From the NCBI GenBank assembly GCA_041494885.1, contig JBGQBO010000007.1, positions 68,359-132,358 on the forward strand: a stretch of DNA of 64,000 bases, given 5' to 3'. Shown here piece after piece: positions 2,266 through 38,523 of this stretch; the first letter of the stretch is position 1; the number at the start of each line of letters is the position of its first letter. This DNA comes from Terriglobia bacterium (GTDB lineage: Bacteria > Acidobacteriota > Terriglobia > JAIQFV01). The translations under genes were made by a program, and so were the position numbers. The notes beneath the pieces are model-generated. The model had not been told where the DNA came from and ran no database searches. It saw only the letters and a list, made by a program, of their open reading frames with translations.

Positions 2266-2532
2266 AAAGCCGCCGTCGATTCGGGACAGTGGCTGCTCTA
2301 TCGCTATCACCCCGATCGCGCGAAGCAGGGCGAGAATCCCATGATCCTCGACTCTCGGCCTCCCAAGATTCCCTTGCAGGATTATCTGTACATGGAAAAC
2401 AGATTCAAAATGCTGACCAAAATCAAACCCGATGAAGCAACCCGGTTGCTGAAGCGGGCTCAGGAAGACGTCCAGACACGCTGGCGCCTTTATGAGTACA
2501 TGGCGGCGAGGAAGGTGGAGAACAAAGTTTAA
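2266..2532 (+). other. In-frame continuation of the PFOR C-terminal domain after the TAG (KAAVDSGQWLLYRYHPD...YEYMAARKVENKV). It is either a readthrough or pseudogenised tail, or the TAG is a sequencing error.
   Basis: Same frame as the PFOR ORF. The translation matches the conserved PFOR C-terminal extension (..QQKAAVDSGYWPLYRYNP.. in characterised PFORs). The TAG sits where a Gln (CAG) is expected. Confidence 0.6.
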
Positions 2533-3136
2533 AGTTCAAAGTTCAAGGCTCAAAGTTAAGGGCTTACTGACCGGATGTTCAATGCTTCCAGGCGAGTCAT
2601 TTTGTCTCGTCAGCCGACTTTTTAGAGGCTCTGCAACGTGACAAAAATCGAGAGGTTTGAGGACATCGAGGCTTGGAAACGGGCAAGAGAGTTGGTGTCA
2701 GACATCTATCGAATTAGCTCGACGGGTAAGTTCAATAGGGATTTCTCACTTCGCGACCAGATGCGAAGTGCCTGCATCTCAATTCTGTCCAATATTGCAG
2801 AGGGCTTTGAACGAGGTGGAAACAGGGAGTTCTTACAGTTCCTCGCTTTCGCAAAGGGATCCGCCGGGGAGCTCAGGGCACAGCTTTATATAGCTCTGGA
2901 CCAACAATATATCGCTCACGATGAGTTCGAGAGAATCGCAGGTAAGATCATGGAAGTGAGCCGAATGCTTTCCGGCTTGATGAAATACCTGCAATCGTCG
3001 GAATTGCAAGGGACCAAATATAAATCGGTCTCTGAGCCGTAGAGGGAATTGTTTCTATTATGATTATTGAATCTCAAACTGGAACTTTGAACTAGGGGTT
3101 CCGACTTTGAACTTTGAACTTGGAACTTTGAACTCT
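2527..3136. repeat. Palindromic element 1. Inverted arrays of 7-bp tandem repeats (AAAGTTC units on the left, GAACTTT units on the right) flank a four-helix-bundle gene. It is inserted between PFOR and the DHOD-like gene.
   Basis: Left arm 2527-2560: aaagttcaaagttcaaggctcaaagtt. Right arm 3073-3136: ctggaactttgaactaggggttccgactttgaactttgaacttggaactttgaactc. This is its imperfect reverse complement. Confidence 0.8.
2638..3042 (+). CDS. Four-helix-bundle protein (PF05635 / TIGR02436, the 23S rRNA intervening-sequence protein family, Avd-like).
   Basis: 134-aa ORF with GTG start. Family-typical motifs are WKRARELVSDIYRIS, ...SNIAEGFERGGNREFLQFLAFAKGSAGELRAQLYIA. It lies between the inverted heptamer arrays. 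Confidence 0.8.
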   Translation: MTKIERFEDIEAWKRARELVSDIYRISSTGKFNRDFSLRDQMRSACISILSNIAEGFERGGNREFLQFLAFAKGSAGELRAQLYIALDQQYIAHDEFERIAGKIMEVSRMLSGLMKYLQSSELQGTKYKSVSEP

Positions 3137-4281: not shown

Positions 4282-5400
4282 ATGAAATTCATCGATGAGT
4301 ACCGTGATCGCAAGGCAGCGGGGCAATTCTCGAAGGCGATTGCCAGCATGGCGACGAAGCCCTGGACGCTGATGGAGGTTTGCGGGGGCCAGACCCACTC
4401 CATCGTGAAGTTCGGCGTGGATGAATTACTCCCCAAAGACGTCACCCTGGTGCATGGTCCCGGCTGCCCGGTCTGTGTCACACCGGTCGAACTGATCGAA
4501 AAAGCGATCGAGATCGCCTCTCGCCCCGAGGTGATTTTTTGCTCCTTCGGCGACATGCTGCGCGTGCCTGCCCATGTGGGAAGTGGTCAGGAAGCTCCCG
4601 TTGATCTTCTTTCAATCAAGGCGAAGGGAGGCGATGTCCGGATCGTTTATTCCCCGCTGGATGCGATCAAGATTGCCAGCGCTCACCCCTCAAAGCAAGT
4701 CGTGTTCTTTGCGGTGGGATTTGAAACCACCGCCCCCGCTAATGCCATGGCCGTCTTCCAGGCCTACCAGCAAGGCATCGGGAATTTTTCACTCCTCGTT
4801 TCACACGTGCTGGTGCCCCCCGCGATGGAGGCCATCCTGTCTTCTCCGGACAATCGGGTGCAGGGATTTCTTGCGGCCGGACATGTGTGCACGGTGATGG
4901 GGTATACCGAGTACGAGCCCATTGCCAAAAAATATCACGTGCCCATCGTGGTCACAGGCTTCGAGCCGGTGGACATCCTGCAGGGCATCTACCTCTGCAT
5001 TAAGCAGTTGGAGGAGGGACGGGCAGAAGTGGAAAACCAATATGTCCGGGCCGTTCGTCGCGGAGGCAATCGGGCAGCGCAGCAGATCATTCACGAGGTG
5101 TTTCGAGTGGTGCCTCGCAAGTGGCGGGGCGTCGGCGAAATCCCTCAAAGCGGACTGGCTCTGCAGGAAAAATACGCTGAGTTTGACGCGGAACTTCGCT
5201 TTGGGGTCGCTCAACACACGACGGAAGAATCCACCGAATGTATCGCCGGCCTGGTTCTGCAAGGAATCAAGAAACCTCACGAATGCCCGGCCTTCGGCGC
5301 ACACTGCACGCCGGAACGCCCCCTGGGGGCACCCATGGTCTCCTCGGAGGGCGCCTGCGCGGCGTATTATCGATATCGTCGGCTTTCTTGCAGGAACTGA
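4282..5400 (+). CDS. hypD: [NiFe]-hydrogenase maturation factor HypD.
   Basis: 372-aa ORF with HypD signature motifs [14 protein letters not shown] and C-terminal [11 protein letters not shown]...EGACAAYY. Confidence 0.9.
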
Positions 5401-5429
5401 GAACGAAGCCGGAGACTGGAAAACGGAGG

Positions 5430-5982
5430 CCAGAAGTCAGAAGCCAGAAGTCGGAAGTCAGAGGTCGGAGGTCGGAAACCAGAAGTCAGAGGTCAGAGGT
5501 CAGAGAAAGAACCAATCTCTTTACCAGGGTGGGAAATAAGAAAGGACATTGATAAAATCATACAAGGATCTCCATGTGTATCAACTTTCGTATCGCCTTG
5601 CCATGAAGGTATTCATCGCGTCGAAAGGATTTCCCAAGGACGAATTGAATTCTCTGACGAATCAAATACGTCGGTCTTCTCGGTCGGTCGCGGCTAACAT
5701 AGTAGAGGGGTGGGCAAAACGGGGGTTCGAAAACATATTTAAGCGTCACCTGATCGATTCATTTGGATCTTGCGCCGAAACAAAACTCTGGCTGGATTTT
5801 GCTCGCGACTGCAACTACCTTTCGAGGGATGATCACTCAACGCTCGAGGGGGAATATGAAGAGTTGAGCAAAATGCTTCACCGTCTTTTTGAAAGCTGGG
5901 AAACCTACAATGTTAAGTAGTTCCCTTCCCCAGAATCCCTCAGTTGAGGGTCGGACTTCTGACTTCCGACCTCTGACTTCGG
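5430..5982. repeat. Palindromic element 2. Inverted arrays of 7-bp tandem repeats (CAGAAGT/CAGAGGT, about 11 units, on the left; GACTTCT/GACCTCT, about 4 units, on the right) flank a second four-helix-bundle gene. It is inserted between hypD and hypE.
   Basis: Left arm 5430-5505: ccagaagtcagaagccagaagtcggaagtcagaggtcggaggtcggaaaccagaagtcagaggtcagaggtcagag. Right arm 5949-5982: ggtcggacttctgacttccgacctctgacttcgg. This is its reverse complement. Confidence 0.8.
5549..5920 (+). CDS. Four-helix-bundle protein (PF05635 / 23S rRNA IVS protein family), second copy.
   Basis: 123-aa ORF with TTG start and RBS aaagga. Motifs YQLSYRLAMKVF, ...RSSRSVAANIVEGWAKRG...FGSCAETKLWLDFA. Confidence 0.8.
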   Translation: MIKSYKDLHVYQLSYRLAMKVFIASKGFPKDELNSLTNQIRRSSRSVAANIVEGWAKRGFENIFKRHLIDSFGSCAETKLWLDFARDCNYLSRDDHSTLEGEYEELSKMLHRLFESWETYNVK

Positions 5983-26866: not shown

Positions 26867-27266
26867 CAACTTCTGTCTTCCATTTTCAGGGGGTGAACTT
26901 CCGTTCACTCCCTTTTGATTTTCCGGAAGAGTCCAAAACAGGGAAGATTAAGAGGGAGGTGATTTGGACGCCCGAGGGTCCGGCCTCAAGATGCAGGGAA
27001 GTTTTCTCCCAGCCTCTGGAAAATTAACTCCGCCCAGTACAAACTGACAAATAGTCAGAAGAATCCCTGTGAGCGCTGGAGCAAATAGCGCCTTGCGCCC
27101 CCCTTCCGGAAGCGTCCGCTCCGCCTTTCGCAGATCCTTACCAGCCGAATGAATGGCAAGTTTGCCGGTTTATTCCGCAATCCGAAATCCGCAATCCCCA
27201 ATGAAAGAGTACCTCGCACGAAACCATCGGATCGGGTTGTTCTCCGAAAATTCAATCAACTCATCC

Positions 27267-34093: not shown

Positions 34094-34779
34094 TCTGGTT
34101 TGCCTCCGAAGGTATGAAGAATATTTTCGATTTGTTTTTCCAAACGCGGCTGACAGGCTCGATGGGCCAGAATGATGGACCGAAGCGCATCAGTAGCACT
34201 GTTGATTTCGTCGTTGATGATCACGTAATCGTATCTCGCATACTCCTGGATTTCCCGATGCGCCCTGTCCAGGCGCTGGCGGATCACTTCATCCCCATCC
34301 GAACTCCGTCCCCGCAACCGCTGTTCCAGGATCTGGAACGAGGGGGGAAGCACAAAAATGGAGGGCGCCTCCTTTCCAAAGCGCTGCTTCACTTGCGCCG
34401 CACCCTGAACGTCGATGTCCAGGATCACATCATCGCCGGACGAACGGGCGGCCTCGATCTCCTGCCAGCTCGTTCCGTAATAGTTGCCATAGACCACCGC
34501 ATGCTCGACAAACCTCTGCTCCCGGATCATTCGCTCGAACTCATCGCGGTTTACGAAGAAATAGTCAACCCCATTTTGTTCCCCCGGACGGGGAGTCCGC
34601 GTCGTATGAGAGATGGAAAACCGGACGCCGTCCACTTCCTTCATGACTCGTTTGACCAGGGTGGACTTTCCCGATCCCGAAGGGGCAGAGACGATAAACA
34701 ATATTCCCAGACCTTTCACATCCACGGCAGGCTCACCCCGATCAGGCAGCTCTCGAACACGGTTCGGCTCAGACGACAT
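34090..34779 (-). CDS. gmk: Guanylate kinase.
   Basis: P-loop SAPSGSGKSTL and GMP-binding region. The ORF extends to 34962 on the track, but the conserved protein begins at MSSEPN.. (about 34779). Confidence 0.85.
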   Translation of the reverse strand: MSSEPNRVRELPDRGEPAVDVKGLGILFIVSAPSGSGKSTLVKRVMKEVDGVRFSISHTTRTPRPGEQNGVDYFFVNRDEFERMIREQRFVEHAVVYGNYYGTSWQEIEAARSSGDDVILDIDVQGAAQVKQRFGKEAPSIFVLPPSFQILEQRLRGRSSDGDEVIRQRLDRAHREIQEYARYDYVIINDEINSATDALRSIILAHRACQPRLEKQIENILHTFGGKPE

Positions 34780-35671
34780 TCTGGACTTGCTCGCGTAACT
34801 TTTCAATCTCCGCTTTGATCTCAAGCGCATGATCGCTGGCTTCGCGGGCCCCGCCCAACACGCTGGAGGTTTTAGACAGGATGGTGTTGGCCTCCCGGTG
34901 CATCTCCTGGAGCAGGAAATCGAGCCTCTTTCCAGTCTCACCCTCGGCGTCGAGCAGGGCAAGAAACTGCTTGACGTGACTCTTGAGCCGGGTCACTTCC
35001 TCCGTGACATCACTTTTCTCCGCCAGGTAGGCCACCTCCTGCGCCAATCGGCCGGGATCCACGTTGGCCGACTGGGTGAGCCGTAAAACCTCCTCCTTCA
35101 GTTTCTCGTAAATGGCCTGCACGTTGGACTCCAAGGCCTTTTCGATGGCGTCGACGCGTTGCCCGATGGCACCCGTCCTTCCCCGCAAATCCTCTTCCAG
35201 TTGTTTCCCTTCCAACTTCCGCATTGCCAGCATTTCAGAAAGGGCCTTCTGGAGCGCGTGTTCAAGCGCCGGGCGAAATTTCTCCCTCATTTGATCCTGA
35301 CTCACGAGATCGCCATTACCGAAAGTAACGACGTTGGGCAGCCGAAGGATGGAATCCAGGTTCAGGTCGCTGCTGAGATTAAACTTCTCTTTGAGTTCAT
35401 TCGCGGCACGCAGATAGGCCGCTGCCACGGGCGCGTTGATTTTTACCGGGATCTCGCCCATGCTCTCCATGTTCACGGCAGCCGTAACCGAGCCCCGGAC
35501 GAGTCTTTCCTTGAGGACATTCTTCAGCTCATTCTCGAACGGCTGCAATTCCTGCGGCATTCTGAAACTGGCATCAAAATGGCGATGATTGACAGACTTC
35601 AAGCTGATGGTAATGACAAAATCATCACCCCTGTATTGCCCTTGCCCGAATCCGGTCATGCTAAGAATCAT
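34769..35671 (-). CDS. yicC: YicC/YloC-family protein (stress-induced, putative endoribonuclease).
   Basis: MTGFGQGQ N-terminus and C-terminal DUF1732 coiled-coil region. Confidence 0.8.
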   Translation of the reverse strand: MILSMTGFGQGQYRGDDFVITISLKSVNHRHFDASFRMPQELQPFENELKNVLKERLVRGSVTAAVNMESMGEIPVKINAPVAAAYLRAANELKEKFNLSSDLNLDSILRLPNVVTFGNGDLVSQDQMREKFRPALEHALQKALSEMLAMRKLEGKQLEEDLRGRTGAIGQRVDAIEKALESNVQAIYEKLKEEVLRLTQSANVDPGRLAQEVAYLAEKSDVTEEVTRLKSHVKQFLALLDAEGETGKRLDFLLQEMHREANTILSKTSSVLGGAREASDHALEIKAEIEKLREQVQNVV

Positions 35672-35692
35672 TGATCGTTTCCTAATGCAAAC

Positions 35693-35878
35693 TGTCAGCT
35701 ATCAGCGATCAGCTATCAGTCCTTCAGTAATTTTCTTTGAAGAAGAAAGCGATCGGGCCTCAGTAACAACTATAAACTTAAAGCAAAACCCGTCTTCAGG
35801 GTTGATGGCTGATAACTGATTGCTGATAGCTGACGGCTGATTGCTGATAGCTGAAAGCTGACCACTGATAGCTGACCT
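35693..35878. repeat. Palindromic element 3. Inverted arrays of 7-bp tandem repeats (CAGCTAT / CTGATAG-type units) around a roughly 80-bp core with no gene.
   Basis: Left arm cagctatcagcgatcagctatcagtcc. Right arm ggctgataactgattgctgatagctgacggctgattgctgatagctgaaagctgaccactgatagctgacc. It sits between yicC and the msbA-like gene. Confidence 0.75.
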
Positions 35879-35886
35879 CTTTCTTC

Positions 35887-37713
35887 CTAGCTCGCTTCCA
35901 CCCAGGGCGCAAGATCCGTCTCCGCAAATTGCAGTTCATACAAGCGCTGGTAAACTCCGCCATGATCCAGGAGGTCCTGATGGGTGCCCACTTCCCGGAC
36001 CTGACCGTCCTGCAGCACAACGATCTTGTCGGCGCTCCGGACCGTGGAGAGCCGGTGGGCGATGACAAACACCGTTCGCCCTGTCATCAGGTTTCCCAAG
36101 GCACGCTGAACGTAGAGTTCCGATTCCGAATCCAGGGCCGAAGTCGCCTCATCCAGAATCAGAATGGGCGGGTTCTTCAGGAGGGCCCTTGCGATGGCGA
36201 TTCTCTGGCGCTCTCCCCCAGAGAGTCGCTGTCCCCGCTCTCCGATCACCGTTTCATAGCCCTTCGGCATCTGCATGATGAAATCGTGGGCCAACGCCGC
36301 GCGCGCCGCCTGTTCGATGTCTTCCTGGCGAGTCTGAGGGCGACCGTAGGCGATGTTATTCCGGACGGTGTCGTTAAACAGAATCGTCTCCTGGGTCACA
36401 ATGCCAATGTGTGCGCGGAGGGATTCCCGTGTGAATTCCCGGATGTCACTCCCGTCCACCAGGATGTGCCCCCCGCTCACTTCGAAGAACCGGGGAATCA
36501 AATTGAGCAGGGTCGTCTTGCCGGATCCGCTCGAACCGACAACGGCCGCGACCTCTCCTTTTCTCACGATCAAAGAGACATCCTTCAGAATCGCGCCCTC
36601 GTGGTCATATCCGAAGCTCACCTTGTCGAAAATGATCTGGTCCCGGAACTCGACCAGCGGCCGGGCGCTGGCGTCGTCGGCCTTCTCTTCCGGCAATTCC
36701 AGAAACTCAAACACCCGGGAGGTGGATCCTTTGGCCTGCTGAAATGCATTGTTGATCCCGCTCATCCGTCGGACGGGGTCATACATTTTGAACAACGCAA
36801 ACATGAACGCTATAAAGGTCGCCGGCTTCATTCTCCCGGAGTGGATTTCCGTCTGCGCATAATACAACAGCCCGCCGATCACGACGGCCCCCAGCACTTC
36901 CATCAACGGCGAGGAGAGGGATTGCACGCGGACCCACTTCAGGTTCAGGTGCAGCAACCTCCGGCTCGCTTCCTTGAACTTCAGAAATTCAAACTTCTCC
37001 ATCACAAAAGCTTTCACGATCCGGATTCCGCTGATCGTCTCATGGAGGATGTTAGAAATATCCGCCATGTTATCCTGGCTGGAGCGTGTGGTGCGCCGTA
37101 TCTTCCGTCCGAATTTCACCGACGGGAGAGCCACCAGGGGCGCCAGAAGCACCGCCACCAGGGCCAACAGCCAATTCATCGACACCAGGACGCAGGCCAT
37201 GGCCATCAAGGTAAAAGCCTGCCGCAAGGCATCGGCCAACACCGTGGAGGCGGCATTTTGGATTTTCTCAATATCATTGGTGACCCGAGAGATGAGCCGG
37301 CCGGTCGAGTTGCCATGGAAGAACACAGCCGGTTGGTTGAGAATCTTCTTATACAAATCGTTCCTTAAATTCATCACCACCGACTGTCCTACGAAACTAA
37401 TCAGGTAGTTTCCAAAATAATCACAAATGGCCTTGCCTAAAGCCGTCCCGACGATGAATAGGGCAATCCCCAACCATAACGAATAGGTTCTAAACGGGAT
37501 CAAGACCATTAGATCAACGGTCCGATGCAGCAGGGGAAGCGGAAGAACTGAATTGCCAGGATTCTCCGTGAGAATCTTATCGAAGACAATCTTCAGGGTT
37601 AACGGAACCAACCCTTCAAAGGCGCCTACCGCCGCCATGAGCAGGACGGCGAGCAGGAAGATTGCCAGATAATTGCGAACGTAATGGAGGAGTTTTCGGG
37701 TGTCGTTTTGCAT
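35887..37713 (-). CDS. msbA: ABC transporter, fused permease/ATPase exporter (MsbA-like).
   Basis: 608-aa ORF with a 6-TM N-terminal domain, then Walker A GSSGSGKTT, signature LSGGERQRIAIARAL, Walker B ILILDEATS. Confidence 0.75.
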   Translation of the reverse strand: MQNDTRKLLHYVRNYLAIFLLAVLLMAAVGAFEGLVPLTLKIVFDKILTENPGNSVLPLPLLHRTVDLMVLIPFRTYSLWLGIALFIVGTALGKAICDYFGNYLISFVGQSVVMNLRNDLYKKILNQPAVFFHGNSTGRLISRVTNDIEKIQNAASTVLADALRQAFTLMAMACVLVSMNWLLALVAVLLAPLVALPSVKFGRKIRRTTRSSQDNMADISNILHETISGIRIVKAFVMEKFEFLKFKEASRRLLHLNLKWVRVQSLSSPLMEVLGAVVIGGLLYYAQTEIHSGRMKPATFIAFMFALFKMYDPVRRMSGINNAFQQAKGSTSRVFEFLELPEEKADDASARPLVEFRDQIIFDKVSFGYDHEGAILKDVSLIVRKGEVAAVVGSSGSGKTTLLNLIPRFFEVSGGHILVDGSDIREFTRESLRAHIGIVTQETILFNDTVRNNIAYGRPQTRQEDIEQAARAALAHDFIMQMPKGYETVIGERGQRLSGGERQRIAIARALLKNPPILILDEATSALDSESELYVQRALGNLMTGRTVFVIAHRLSTVRSADKIVVLQDGQVREVGTHQDLLDHGGVYQRLYELQFAETDLAPWVEAS

Positions 37714-37865: not shown

Positions 37866-38276
37866 TCATTTCAGCCAGCCGATTTTGATTTCGCCTTCAA
37901 CCGCTTTGAAGTCGGGGTCGCCAGTGACGAGTTCGGCGTTGCGCAGTTTGGCCAGAGCGGCAGCGAAGGCGTCGGCGTAAGGGAGTTTTTTCGTGCCTTT
38001 GTAGATGGCGGCCTGCCGCACCAAGTCGAGGTTCTTGTCGTCCACACCGACAATCTCAATGGTCAACCCGGCAATTTCCTTCGCCTTCTGTTCGGCGGCC
38101 TCCTGGGACACCTTGCGCATGGTGTTGTAGTAAATCTCGCCCCAGTTGATCACACAGAGGAGCAGCTTGTGCGTTCCAGCCTCAGCCTTGACCAACAGCT
38201 TCTCCACTTCTTCGGCGGCAGGCTCGTCCTCAAAAAACGCGATCAGCGCCCAGCTATCCAATACCTTGGTGGCCAT
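37866..38276 (-). CDS. vapC: PIN-domain toxin VapC.
   Basis: 136-aa ORF immediately downstream of the antitoxin with a 1-bp gap. PIN-like acidic residues are present. Confidence 0.7.
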   Translation of the reverse strand: MATKVLDSWALIAFFEDEPAAEEVEKLLVKAEAGTHKLLLCVINWGEIYYNTMRKVSQEAAEQKAKEIAGLTIEIVGVDDKNLDLVRQAAIYKGTKKLPYADAFAAALAKLRNAELVTGDPDFKAVEGEIKIGWLK

Positions 38277-38277
38277 G

Positions 38278-38523
38278 TCAGAATTCCCGCTCGCGCTTGC
38301 GATCGTCCATCAGCGCCTTCAGTACGCCAGCACCCTTCAATGAGCCGCGCAGGGTCCGGATGTGCCGCGTTGTGATCGGTTTGAGCACAATGGCGTCCGC
38401 CTCCCCATATACCAGGGCGCGCGTGCCCTCTTCGATATCGAACTCCTTGCGCAGCCAGCGTGGAATCACCACCTGACCTTTTACAGTAAACCGGATGGTG
38501 TCGGTCTTGTGTGTTGTCTTCAT
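38278..38523 (-). CDS. vapB: AbrB/SpoVT-type antitoxin VapB.
   Basis: 81-aa ORF. IRFTVKGQVVIPRWLRKEF is a swapped-hairpin AbrB-type motif. Confidence 0.7.
   Translation of the reverse strand: MKTTHKTDTIRFTVKGQVVIPRWLRKEFDIEEGTRALVYGEADAIVLKPITTRHIRTLRGSLKGAGVLKALMDDRKREREF

Follow-up and report, generated by a model that had tools for sequence, protein, structure and literature searches.

To our knowledge, the intervening sequences (IVSs) of 23S rRNA and the S23p/PF05635 proteins have gone without an explanation since the early 1990s, and the same holds true for the heptamer repeats of cyanobacteria. In Coxiella burnetii, the 23S rRNA IVS combines a PF05635 (S23p) ORF with tandem GACAGAT heptamers, the number of which varies among strains, and RNase III cuts at the first of these repeats; the ORF itself is dispensable, decaying, and probably untranslated, and IVSs that carry no ORF exist as well (PMC4990558). 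In cyanobacteria, hairpins of 7-bp STRR (short tandemly repeated repetitive) units are found between the co-transcribed genes hupS and hupL, and proposals for their role include the stability of the transcript and translational coupling (PMC2670836). Heptamers of a further type were described by MacGregor in 2015: TAACTGA intergenic repeats occur in Beggiatoaceae, Cyanobacteria, and Bacteroidetes with 2–6 copies per set and are nearly always direct, with one inverted case among 170 sets (PMC4679880). Heptamer hairpins in operons and heptamer-bearing IVSs are already known; in the papers that we were able to search, we found no description of inverted heptamer arrays as a general, cross-phylum companion of PF05635 genes in operon spacers, nor of gene-less acidobacterial forms, inversion or replacement of the center, or a chirality bias of the arrays.

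The window analyzed here is a stretch of 64,000 nucleotides from a Terriglobia bacterium (Acidobacteriota), in which three palindromes built from inverted heptamer arrays were noticed: elements 1 and 2, each enclosing a four-helix-bundle (4HB) gene, and element 3. Element 3 is a 215-bp gene-less palindrome (35672–35886) that fills the whole spacer between the stop codon of an msbA-like gene and the start codon of yicC. Both neighbors are encoded on the minus strand and were assigned by NCBIfam matches: the upstream gene (35887–37713) encodes an MsbA-like ABC exporter of 608 aa, the downstream gene (34769–35671) encodes a YicC/YloC-family endoribonuclease and is the first of the series yicC-gmk-rpoZ-coaBC. 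The initial annotation, made from the sequence alone, had proposed inverted heptamer arrays between yicC and msbA that surround about 80 bp without an ORF. These arrays are real: Tandem Repeats Finder reports a period-7 array of 3.6 copies with the consensus TCAGCTA at 35695–35719 and one of 10.4 copies with the consensus TGATAGC at 35803–35875, and the two arms are reverse-complementary over 26–28 nt at 86–92% in several registers. Only the extent of the center had to be adjusted, as 83 nt lie between the two reported arrays and 76 nt of these are unique. The absence of a gene was borne out, in that the ORFs overlapping element 3 (76, 90, and 31 aa) have no Pfam match at E≤1. Likewise, Rfam yielded no family at the gathering threshold for the whole window and none at E≤5 for element 3, and no rRNA was found in the window by this search.

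In the direction of its flanking genes, that is on the minus strand, element 3 consists of 11 nt, 11 units, the 76-nt center, 4 units, and 23 nt that include the Shine–Dalgarno sequence and are followed by the ATG of yicC; its unit types are TCAGCNN/NNGCTGA (4 + 11 units). The 5′ arm of the transcript (35799–35875, minus strand) comprises 11 TCAGCNN units and is stop-free in every frame. The 3′ arm (35695–35722, minus strand) comprises 4 NNNCTGA units of the TAGCTGA type, in which TAG and TGA stops occur, and 23 nt separate its end from the yicC ATG. The unique center between them (35723–35798, minus strand; 76 nt), which we term type 1, has no match to a protein family and proved to be both invertible and replaceable, as described below. 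At its upstream border lies a small inner hairpin (35787–35803, minus strand) with the sequence AACCC-TGAAGAC-GGGTT followed by TTGCTTT, which resembles a terminator, albeit weakly: the stem has 5 bp and 0.4–0.6 such sites are expected by chance. The whole element is bordered by a 6-bp direct repeat: the left TAGGAA copy (35884–35889, minus strand) is composed of the msbA stop codon TAG plus GAA, and the right copy (35679–35684, minus strand) doubles as the Shine–Dalgarno sequence (AGGAA) of yicC.

The initial annotation had named a chance microsatellite pair as the outcome that would speak against its reading. The window contains seven period-7 array sites and none at periods 4–6 and 8–12, so that period 7 alone is enriched. 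No period-7 array was found in 20 shuffles of the window or in approximately 400 kb of distant yicC loci; the latter, obtained by a YicC-based scan of metagenome contigs, served as a zero-array control, as all relatives in them are at ≤47% identity and too distant for the orthologous site. Moreover, complementary arms are conserved at this one junction in three species and analogous structures occur in many phyla. Apart from the general instability of arrays, nothing favors a coincidental pair of repeats without biological coherence, and the enrichment together with the orthologous conservation leaves this explanation practically no weight.

A structure prediction was among the checks that the initial annotation had suggested. 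Element 3 folds into one long hairpin, with z-scores of −5.0 and −6.2, one per strand; on the minus strand, the 215 nt (35672–35886) have an MFE of −74.8 kcal/mol (z approximately −5) and form a quasi-continuous stem of 30 bp. A stem of 30–50 bp is predicted in all five element 3 alleles in either orientation of the center (z −4.9 to −10.8), the window allele being the weakest of the five (30 bp with bulges) and the allele of strain L001 reaching a perfect run of 32 bp. We also considered a canonical intrinsic terminator at the base of this long stem and rejected it because no allele has a conserved U-tract 3′ of the stem. If base pairing in the RNA were what is selected, G-U pairs might be expected among the arm mismatches; the mismatches of 15 elements, however, comprise 21 G-U versus 31 A-C cases in the sense RNA (p=0.21) and thus exhibit no G-U preference. 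Consequently, the complementarity may be kept by exchange at the DNA level and not by selection at the RNA level. Nothing points to selection on the RNA stem over homogenization of the DNA.

With the 23S rRNA IVSs, element 3 shares inverted repeats that form a stem with tandem heptamers, variable in number among strains, and thereby loop out the insert; moreover, elements 1 and 2 carry the protein family of the IVSs, PF05635. The two differ in location, as element 3 resides in the spacer of an mRNA operon whereas IVSs reside in helix 25 or 45 of 23S rRNA, in the arrays, which are far longer here (4–13 units per arm), and in the lack of an ORF in element 3. We know of no report of DNA inversion or center replacement in IVSs. 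With the STRRs, element 3 has in common tandem 7-bp units that are inverted, form hairpins, and are located in intergenic spacers of operons. Its host is an uncultured acidobacterium (a Terriglobia MAG, as the names of close homologues also indicate) and not a heterocystous cyanobacterium, its unit TCAGCTA is not a canonical STRR, and its arms enclose a 76-nt unique center, whereas an STRR is a tight hairpin. STRRs are reportedly also present inside the RNase P RNA gene, as Vioque is said to have described in 1997. A link of STRRs to PF05635 genes is not described in the papers that could be searched. Finally, the TAACTGA repeats resemble element 3 in placing NNNCTGA heptamers just 5′ of start codons, and one unit of the 3′ arm of element 3 is exactly TAACTGA, the majority being TAGCTGA. 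No hairpin is implied for those repeats, whereas in element 3 the array has an inverted partner.

Element 1 (2523–3134, plus strand) has its arms at 2523–2564 and 3104–3134 and its 4HB gene at 2638–3042, and is located between the gene of a pyruvate:ferredoxin oxidoreductase (POR) and a downstream gene of the dihydroorotate-dehydrogenase (DHOdh) family; the stop codon TAA of the POR gene (2530–2532) lies inside the 5′ arm. Element 2 (5426–5980, plus strand) has its arms at 5426–5504 and 5954–5980 and its 4HB gene at 5549–5920, and is located between hypD and hypE. By family matches, both 4HB genes belong to TIGR02436/PF05635, the product of which we take to be related to Avd, an accessory protein of retroelements. 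As claimed in the initial annotation, the three elements have the 7-nt periodicity in common and not the sequence: the distance of TCAGCTA from the RRGTTCA-type units found beside genes like the 4HB gene of element 1 is at the level of random heptamers. A sister species has both 4HB elements at the orthologous junctions and with unchanged orientation; the two arms of each have changed in concert: AAAGTTC/GAACTTT in one species corresponds to AAAGTCC/GGACTTT in the other, and AGAAGTC/GACTTCT corresponds to AGAAGCC/GGCTTCT. The lengths of the arrays differ up to approximately 2.5-fold between the sister species. The 4HB genes are intact and fast-evolving, with dN values of 0.24–0.27 versus 0.04–0.10 for neighboring genes. 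When HypD and the 4HB protein encoded in element 1 were looked up, only one short Logan contig was returned beyond the source contig.

For a broader view of heptamer arrays with and without PF05635 genes, an alignment of the two 4HB proteins of the window was scanned against one genome per species, which yielded 39 loci from at least seven phyla, including Acidobacteriota, Nitrosomonadales, Deltaproteobacteria, Nitrospirota, Chloroflexota, Bacteroidota, Verrucomicrobia, and others. These loci contain 85 arrays at period 7 versus 0–19 at any other period. A period-7 array is located within 200 nt of 25 of the 39 4HB genes; 13 genes have arrays on both sides, and in 11 of these 13 the arms are at least 75% complementary. 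Of 24 array-bearing 4HB genes, 19 are located between two co-directional ORFs in sense orientation and 2 in antisense, a count to which not all loci contribute independently. Beside the genes that are like the 4HB gene of element 1, the units conform to a cross-phylum consensus RRGTTCA, with a mean distance of 2.24 versus 3.57 for random heptamers. Gene-less inverted heptamer hairpins are found as well, with loops from 3 to approximately 110 nt (loci L090, L098, L102, L103, L105, L106, and L107), and the exact array pattern of element 3 (TCAGCTA-type) occurs in 49 stretches of IMG/VR contigs, in which heptamer hairpins are exceptionally dense (247 arrays in 431 kb) and no 4HB gene was detected. 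Element 3 shares with the PF05635 class the inverted period-7 arrays and their position in an operon, after the stop codon of the first gene and before the ribosome-binding site of the second; unlike the 4HB-bearing members, it has no 4HB gene between its arms. Element 3 is a genuine gene-less counterpart of elements 1 and 2, as the initial annotation had it, and is conserved at its junction in three species.

A further property of these elements is their chirality: in all three elements of the window, the stop-free TCA arm comes first and the TGA/TAG arm second. The same order prevails at 17:4 in the 4HB survey (p=0.007), a count that is not independent, as the survey loci are phylogenetically related, and at 16:5 in tight viral hairpins. 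As 7 is not a multiple of 3, the TGA and TAG stops of the 3′ arm fall in all three frames. Such a chirality is not predicted by a hairpin alone and points to either a translation-related role or a directional mechanism by which the arrays are generated. The first of these would make the element a translation-level device, in which the 3′ arm provides stops in the three frames and the stem joins the upstream stop codon to the downstream start codon, thereby insulating the two genes with translational coupling across the insert kept. In line with this, the arms adjoin the upstream stop codon and the downstream Shine–Dalgarno sequence, the stop codon of the POR gene is even part of an arm of element 1, the TAACTGA repeats of Beggiatoaceae end 1 nt before start codons (PMC4679880), and translational coupling has been put forward for the STRR hairpins (PMC2670836). 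The relatedness of the survey loci, however, reduces the force of the counts, and unit types exist that are stop-free in both arms (for example GGACAGA in L123 and GGTTTCT in L097); we consider a translation-level device improbable.

The behavior of element 3 in close relatives separates its arms from its content. Exact lookup of the YicC protein returned six contigs from strains that are 98–100% identical in DNA, among them L002, which does not differ from the window. In three others (L001, L003, and L004), which stem from three independent assemblies, the flanks are colinear with the window at 98.8–99.4% identity, whereas the central 153 nt align to the window on the opposite strand at 95–97% (BLAST). 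The window has 11|4 units and L001 has 8|7, which amounts to 15 in each, and the inner units of the window reappear reverse-complemented on the other side in L001: This places the crossover inside the arrays. An assembly artefact behind the inversion was considered and rejected, as the arms (≤77 nt) are shorter than the k-mers given in the contig identifiers (k141) and either orientation recurs in independent assemblies, each with its own SNPs.

The center is not only inverted but also exchanged. A lookup of rpoZ led to L156, a strain 97.2% identical in DNA, in which short arms of 3|4 units with outer flanks of the window type enclose a 95-nt center that is unrelated to type 1 (alignment z≤3.9) and that we term type 2. 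The reverse complement of the type-2 center is present in L005, approximately 92% identical over 128 nt, so that the type-2 allele, too, occurs in both orientations. A 195-nt portion of L005 that had remained unmatched was considered as a hidden cargo gene; this was rejected because it has neither a Pfam match nor a 4HB-like frame, and it corresponds to the inverted type-2 center plus unexplained upstream DNA. Upstream of the element, L005 has a sequence other than msbA up to the end of the contig. Short-word BLAST in the window and the fetched loci found no further copy of the type-1 center or of the unmatched upstream sequence of L005, which contains the inverted type-2 center, and an exact 24-mer from the type-2 center had no match in IMG/VR; the exchange nevertheless hints at a donor copy of the type-2 center elsewhere. 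The initial annotation had argued that the repeat scaffold is the mobile or replicating unit and the gene its cargo, or that the cargo has been lost. That arms persist while their content is replaced (L156, L005) and inverted among sister strains supports the scaffold, and not the content, as the unit.

Beyond the strain level, element 3 is present at the orthologous junction in two further species at approximately 80% DNA identity, which we name by their YicC homologues P0003 and P0004. The P0004 species has a 216-nt element in the orientation of L001 (orientation B), and all ten contigs are identical. The P0003 species has a 258-nt element with arms of approximately 10 and 13 units in the orientation of the window (orientation A); this was read at the three places listed, which all agree, the protein being carried by six contigs. 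The window shares orientation A with P0003, and orientation B is common to L001, L003, L004, and P0004; in total, at least three orientation pairs were seen, and among strains that are 97–99% identical the inversion comprises the center plus inner units. The centers of P0003 and P0004 are homologous to type 1 (alignment z 10–19) at approximately 66–72% identity, compared to approximately 80% for the neighboring coding DNA. As it is alignable across three species, the type-1 center may be under some constraint.

Inverted repeats around a short segment that is present in both orientations in close strains call an inverton to mind: A flip of the center would turn the terminator-like hairpin with or against the direction of transcription and thereby tune the read-through from msbA into yicC-gmk-rpoZ-coaBC. 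The only terminator-like site of the spacer indeed falls inside the invertible part and is in sense orientation in the window and antisense in L001; both orientations are seen between strains 97–99% identical, and this for two different centers; and two contigs, L005 and L006, break off at element 3. The element differs from invertons, however, in that no promoter-like site was found in its center and no recombinase gene is nearby in the gene lists. Moreover, the terminator-like match is weak in the window and lacks conservation of its U-tract in P0003 and P0004, the P0004 contigs have a single orientation and the P0003 places the opposite one, and the downstream genes are essential housekeeping genes. 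Finally, the crossovers are found at differing registers of the arrays, which fits recombination by homology or by template switching and not the action of a site-specific enzyme. Taken together, we regard a regulatory switch as very unlikely.

The comparison of insertion sites in related strains, which the initial annotation had suggested, proved informative on the history of the element. In the P0002 species (L141), element 3 is absent and the two genes are separated by nothing but a 10-nt spacer, TTAGGAATCGACCAATG; in more distant relatives (65–71% YicC identity), the spacers measure 29, 115, and 210 nt and contain no arrays. In an NJ tree of yicC-gmk-rpoZ, P0002 is sister to P0003 and thereby nested in the element-bearing clade. 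The most parsimonious history comprises one gain in the ancestor of the clade, a minimum of two inversions, and one clean loss. In the last ancestor shared by the species with element 3, the element was already gene-less, and no remnant of a 4HB gene is detectable in it. In the lineage of the window, removal of the DNA between the two TAGGAA copies recreates the junction of L141, which has a single TTAGGAATCGACCAATG at this place. The TAGGAA pair is suggestive of either a target duplication or an excision mediated by slippage; in P0003 and P0004, however, the repeat is degraded, and its overlap with the msbA stop codon and the yicC ribosome-binding site confounds the interpretation.

These data also bear on the notion that element 3 is MITE-like, as which the initial annotation had described it, with the scaffold as a mobile or replicating unit. 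According to this explanation, the arrays would be the terminal inverted repeats of a non-autonomous transposon, recognized by a transposase whose gene lies elsewhere, and the cargo would be the 4HB gene or the center. Element 3 resembles a MITE in being small, non-coding, terminally inverted, polymorphic for presence and absence, with an empty site that is clean in the one clade species that lacks it, and possibly flanked by a 6-bp duplication. That L156 and L005 have a different center within the same arms could likewise be read as an exchange of cargo, and the closely related 4HB elements in distant phyla imply horizontal spread. Yet, a family of related copies, as expected of a MITE, was not found: neither center has a second copy in the window or in any fetched locus, and the type-2 24-mer is absent from IMG/VR. 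Instead of common terminal sequences, the three elements of this one genome have unrelated arms, which are tandem arrays of variable length without defined termini. The gene lists contain no transposase or recombinase within 6 kb on either side of element 3, and elements 1 and 2 carry the 4HB gene only and have different ends. The putative target duplication is degraded in P0003 and P0004, and its copies coincide with a stop codon and a Shine–Dalgarno sequence. All three elements, moreover, have kept their orthologous positions over approximately 20% DNA divergence and are vertically stable. The part of the initial annotation that concerns mobility is not supported by these results, and a MITE-like transposon is in our view unlikely.

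We instead favor, with slightly better than even confidence, the reading that element 3 is an ORF-less heptamer-array palindrome, which belongs to one widespread class with the 4HB elements, the 23S rRNA IVS, and the STRR hairpins. Members of this class have two inverted arrays of 7-nt units, inserted within an operon so that a stop codon precedes them and the ribosome-binding site of the following gene comes after them. As the relatives of element 3 show, recombination inside its arrays has repeatedly flipped the center together with inner units, and the center has been exchanged for an unrelated sequence between the same arms. We infer that msbA and yicC are co-transcribed because relatives have spacers of 10–29 nt and a stop codon that overlaps with the Shine–Dalgarno sequence. 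The common transcript would then form a long double-stranded RNA stem, thereby looping out the insert, and this stem is probably cut by RNase III, in analogy to the cleavage measured at the heptamers of the Coxiella IVS, which would separate the msbA mRNA from that of yicC-gmk-rpoZ. The complementarity of the arms would mainly be kept through exchange between them at the DNA level, and the center would be a passenger with little or no function that depends on its orientation. The constant period of 7 is left unaccounted for by the hairpin model.

A more far-reaching proposal, which we advance tentatively and consider possible rather than likely, is that the PF05635 heptamer elements, their gene-less derivatives, the STRR hairpins, and the rRNA IVSs constitute one widespread superfamily of operon-dwelling palindromes that has so far escaped recognition. 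In such a superfamily, the 7-nt arrays may be the functional scaffold, which stays complementary through concerted evolution and whose fixed TCA-first/TGA-last chirality may put stops in all frames. The arrays may at the same time serve as mobile handles for recombination, by which the sequence enclosed between them is inverted or swapped, and the insert may be rendered harmless by being looped out of the mRNA or excised. The 4HB protein, for its part, may recognize the heptamer repeats.

The locus links IVSs, PF05635, and heptamer repeats, as one architecture is found in at least seven phyla, also in gene-less form, and with arms that change in concert. The near-identical strains constitute natural experiments, in that they provide flipped centers, a swapped center, and a clean loss, and these natural variants set the constrained features (arms, position, and chirality) apart from the unconstrained ones (the content of the loop and its orientation). 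The arrays also carry a practical warning: gene callers put spurious ORFs on them, and assemblies break there.

In the sister species GCA_020073085.1, both four-helix-bundle (4HB, PF05635) elements of the window (2523-3134 and 5426-5980) have conserved counterparts at the orthologous junctions, located at 1640-2222 and 4619-5312 of locus L148. Between the two genomes a single base differs in every heptamer unit, with T→C throughout the 5' arm matched by a compensatory A→G throughout the 3' arm, and the lengths of the arrays differ up to about 2.5-fold. The enclosed 4HB genes (window 2638-3042 and 5549-5920; locus L149 1768-2157 and 4807-5196) are intact in both, with synonymous sites saturated and identities between orthologues of just 65% and 61%, compared with 84-93% for the neighboring genes; this divergence reflects either fast evolution or exchange with paralogues. 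The first units of the 5' array of element 1 contain the TAA stop codon (2530-2532) of the 1204-aa pyruvate:ferredoxin oxidoreductase, and because this codon falls within the array, the terminal residues of the enzyme are repeat-encoded.

Alleles of the gene-less element 3 with a different centre occur at the msbA/yicC junction in close relatives: In a strain with 97% DNA identity to the window (GCA_049685715.1, L156 1251-1425), the same arms, again at this junction, enclose a 95-nt non-homologous centre, referred to as type 2. The type-2 centre is inverted in GCA_044447805.1 (L005 1-195, at the contig end), where its upstream side retains only two heptamer units. The AT-rich sequence upstream of the centre, in which the contig terminates, is unrelated to msbA. 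This upstream sequence could have arisen by a larger rearrangement via a distant array or by an insertion. Contigs break at element 3 in both L005 and the junction of another near-identical strain (L006), and the called "genes" of 52 aa and 60 aa at L004 2654-2812 and L139 3239-3421, for which no Pfam match was found, are translated heptamer arrays; the repeats therefore cause annotation as well as assembly artefacts.

MAGs of Deltaproteobacteria, Chloroflexota, Nitrospirota, and Nitrosomonadales also carry gene-less heptamer hairpins (L098 1697-1756, L106 2929-2987, L107 2922-2977, L105 4079-4246, and L090 928-1065). The hairpin loops span 3 to about 90 nt, and several of the hairpins are located immediately between co-directional ORFs or adjoin a 4HB element. 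Predicted viral contigs from IMG/VR (L158-L206; e.g., L160, L164, L171, L179, and L180), with GC contents of 40-72%, carry about one heptamer array per 1.7 kb, many of them tight intergenic TCAGCNN/NNGCTGA hairpins; no PF05635 ORF was detected in these contigs. The unit of element 3 is therefore widespread beyond Acidobacteriota. The window itself also holds a solitary array of four TCCGCAA units in a convergent intergenic region (27170-27204), without an inverted partner; among the IMG/VR contigs, L173, L200, L204, and L206 are examples of those with comparable arrays of the ATTCCGC/AATCCGC type.

In the window species, oppC and msbA are separated by a PIN-domain gene with an 81-aa partner (minus strand, 37866-38523), which together look like a VapBC toxin–antitoxin pair. 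Both are absent from the corresponding position in the two other element-3-bearing species, which are represented by the YicC homologues P0004 and P0003, and the pair is therefore a lineage-specific insertion adjoining element 3. A further case of the four-helix-bundle family in an operon spacer, judged by gene position, is found in two strains of Flavobacterium columnare, in which such a gene lies about 35 nt past gmk and 34-89 nt ahead of nadD (PMC5524665, Table 5).
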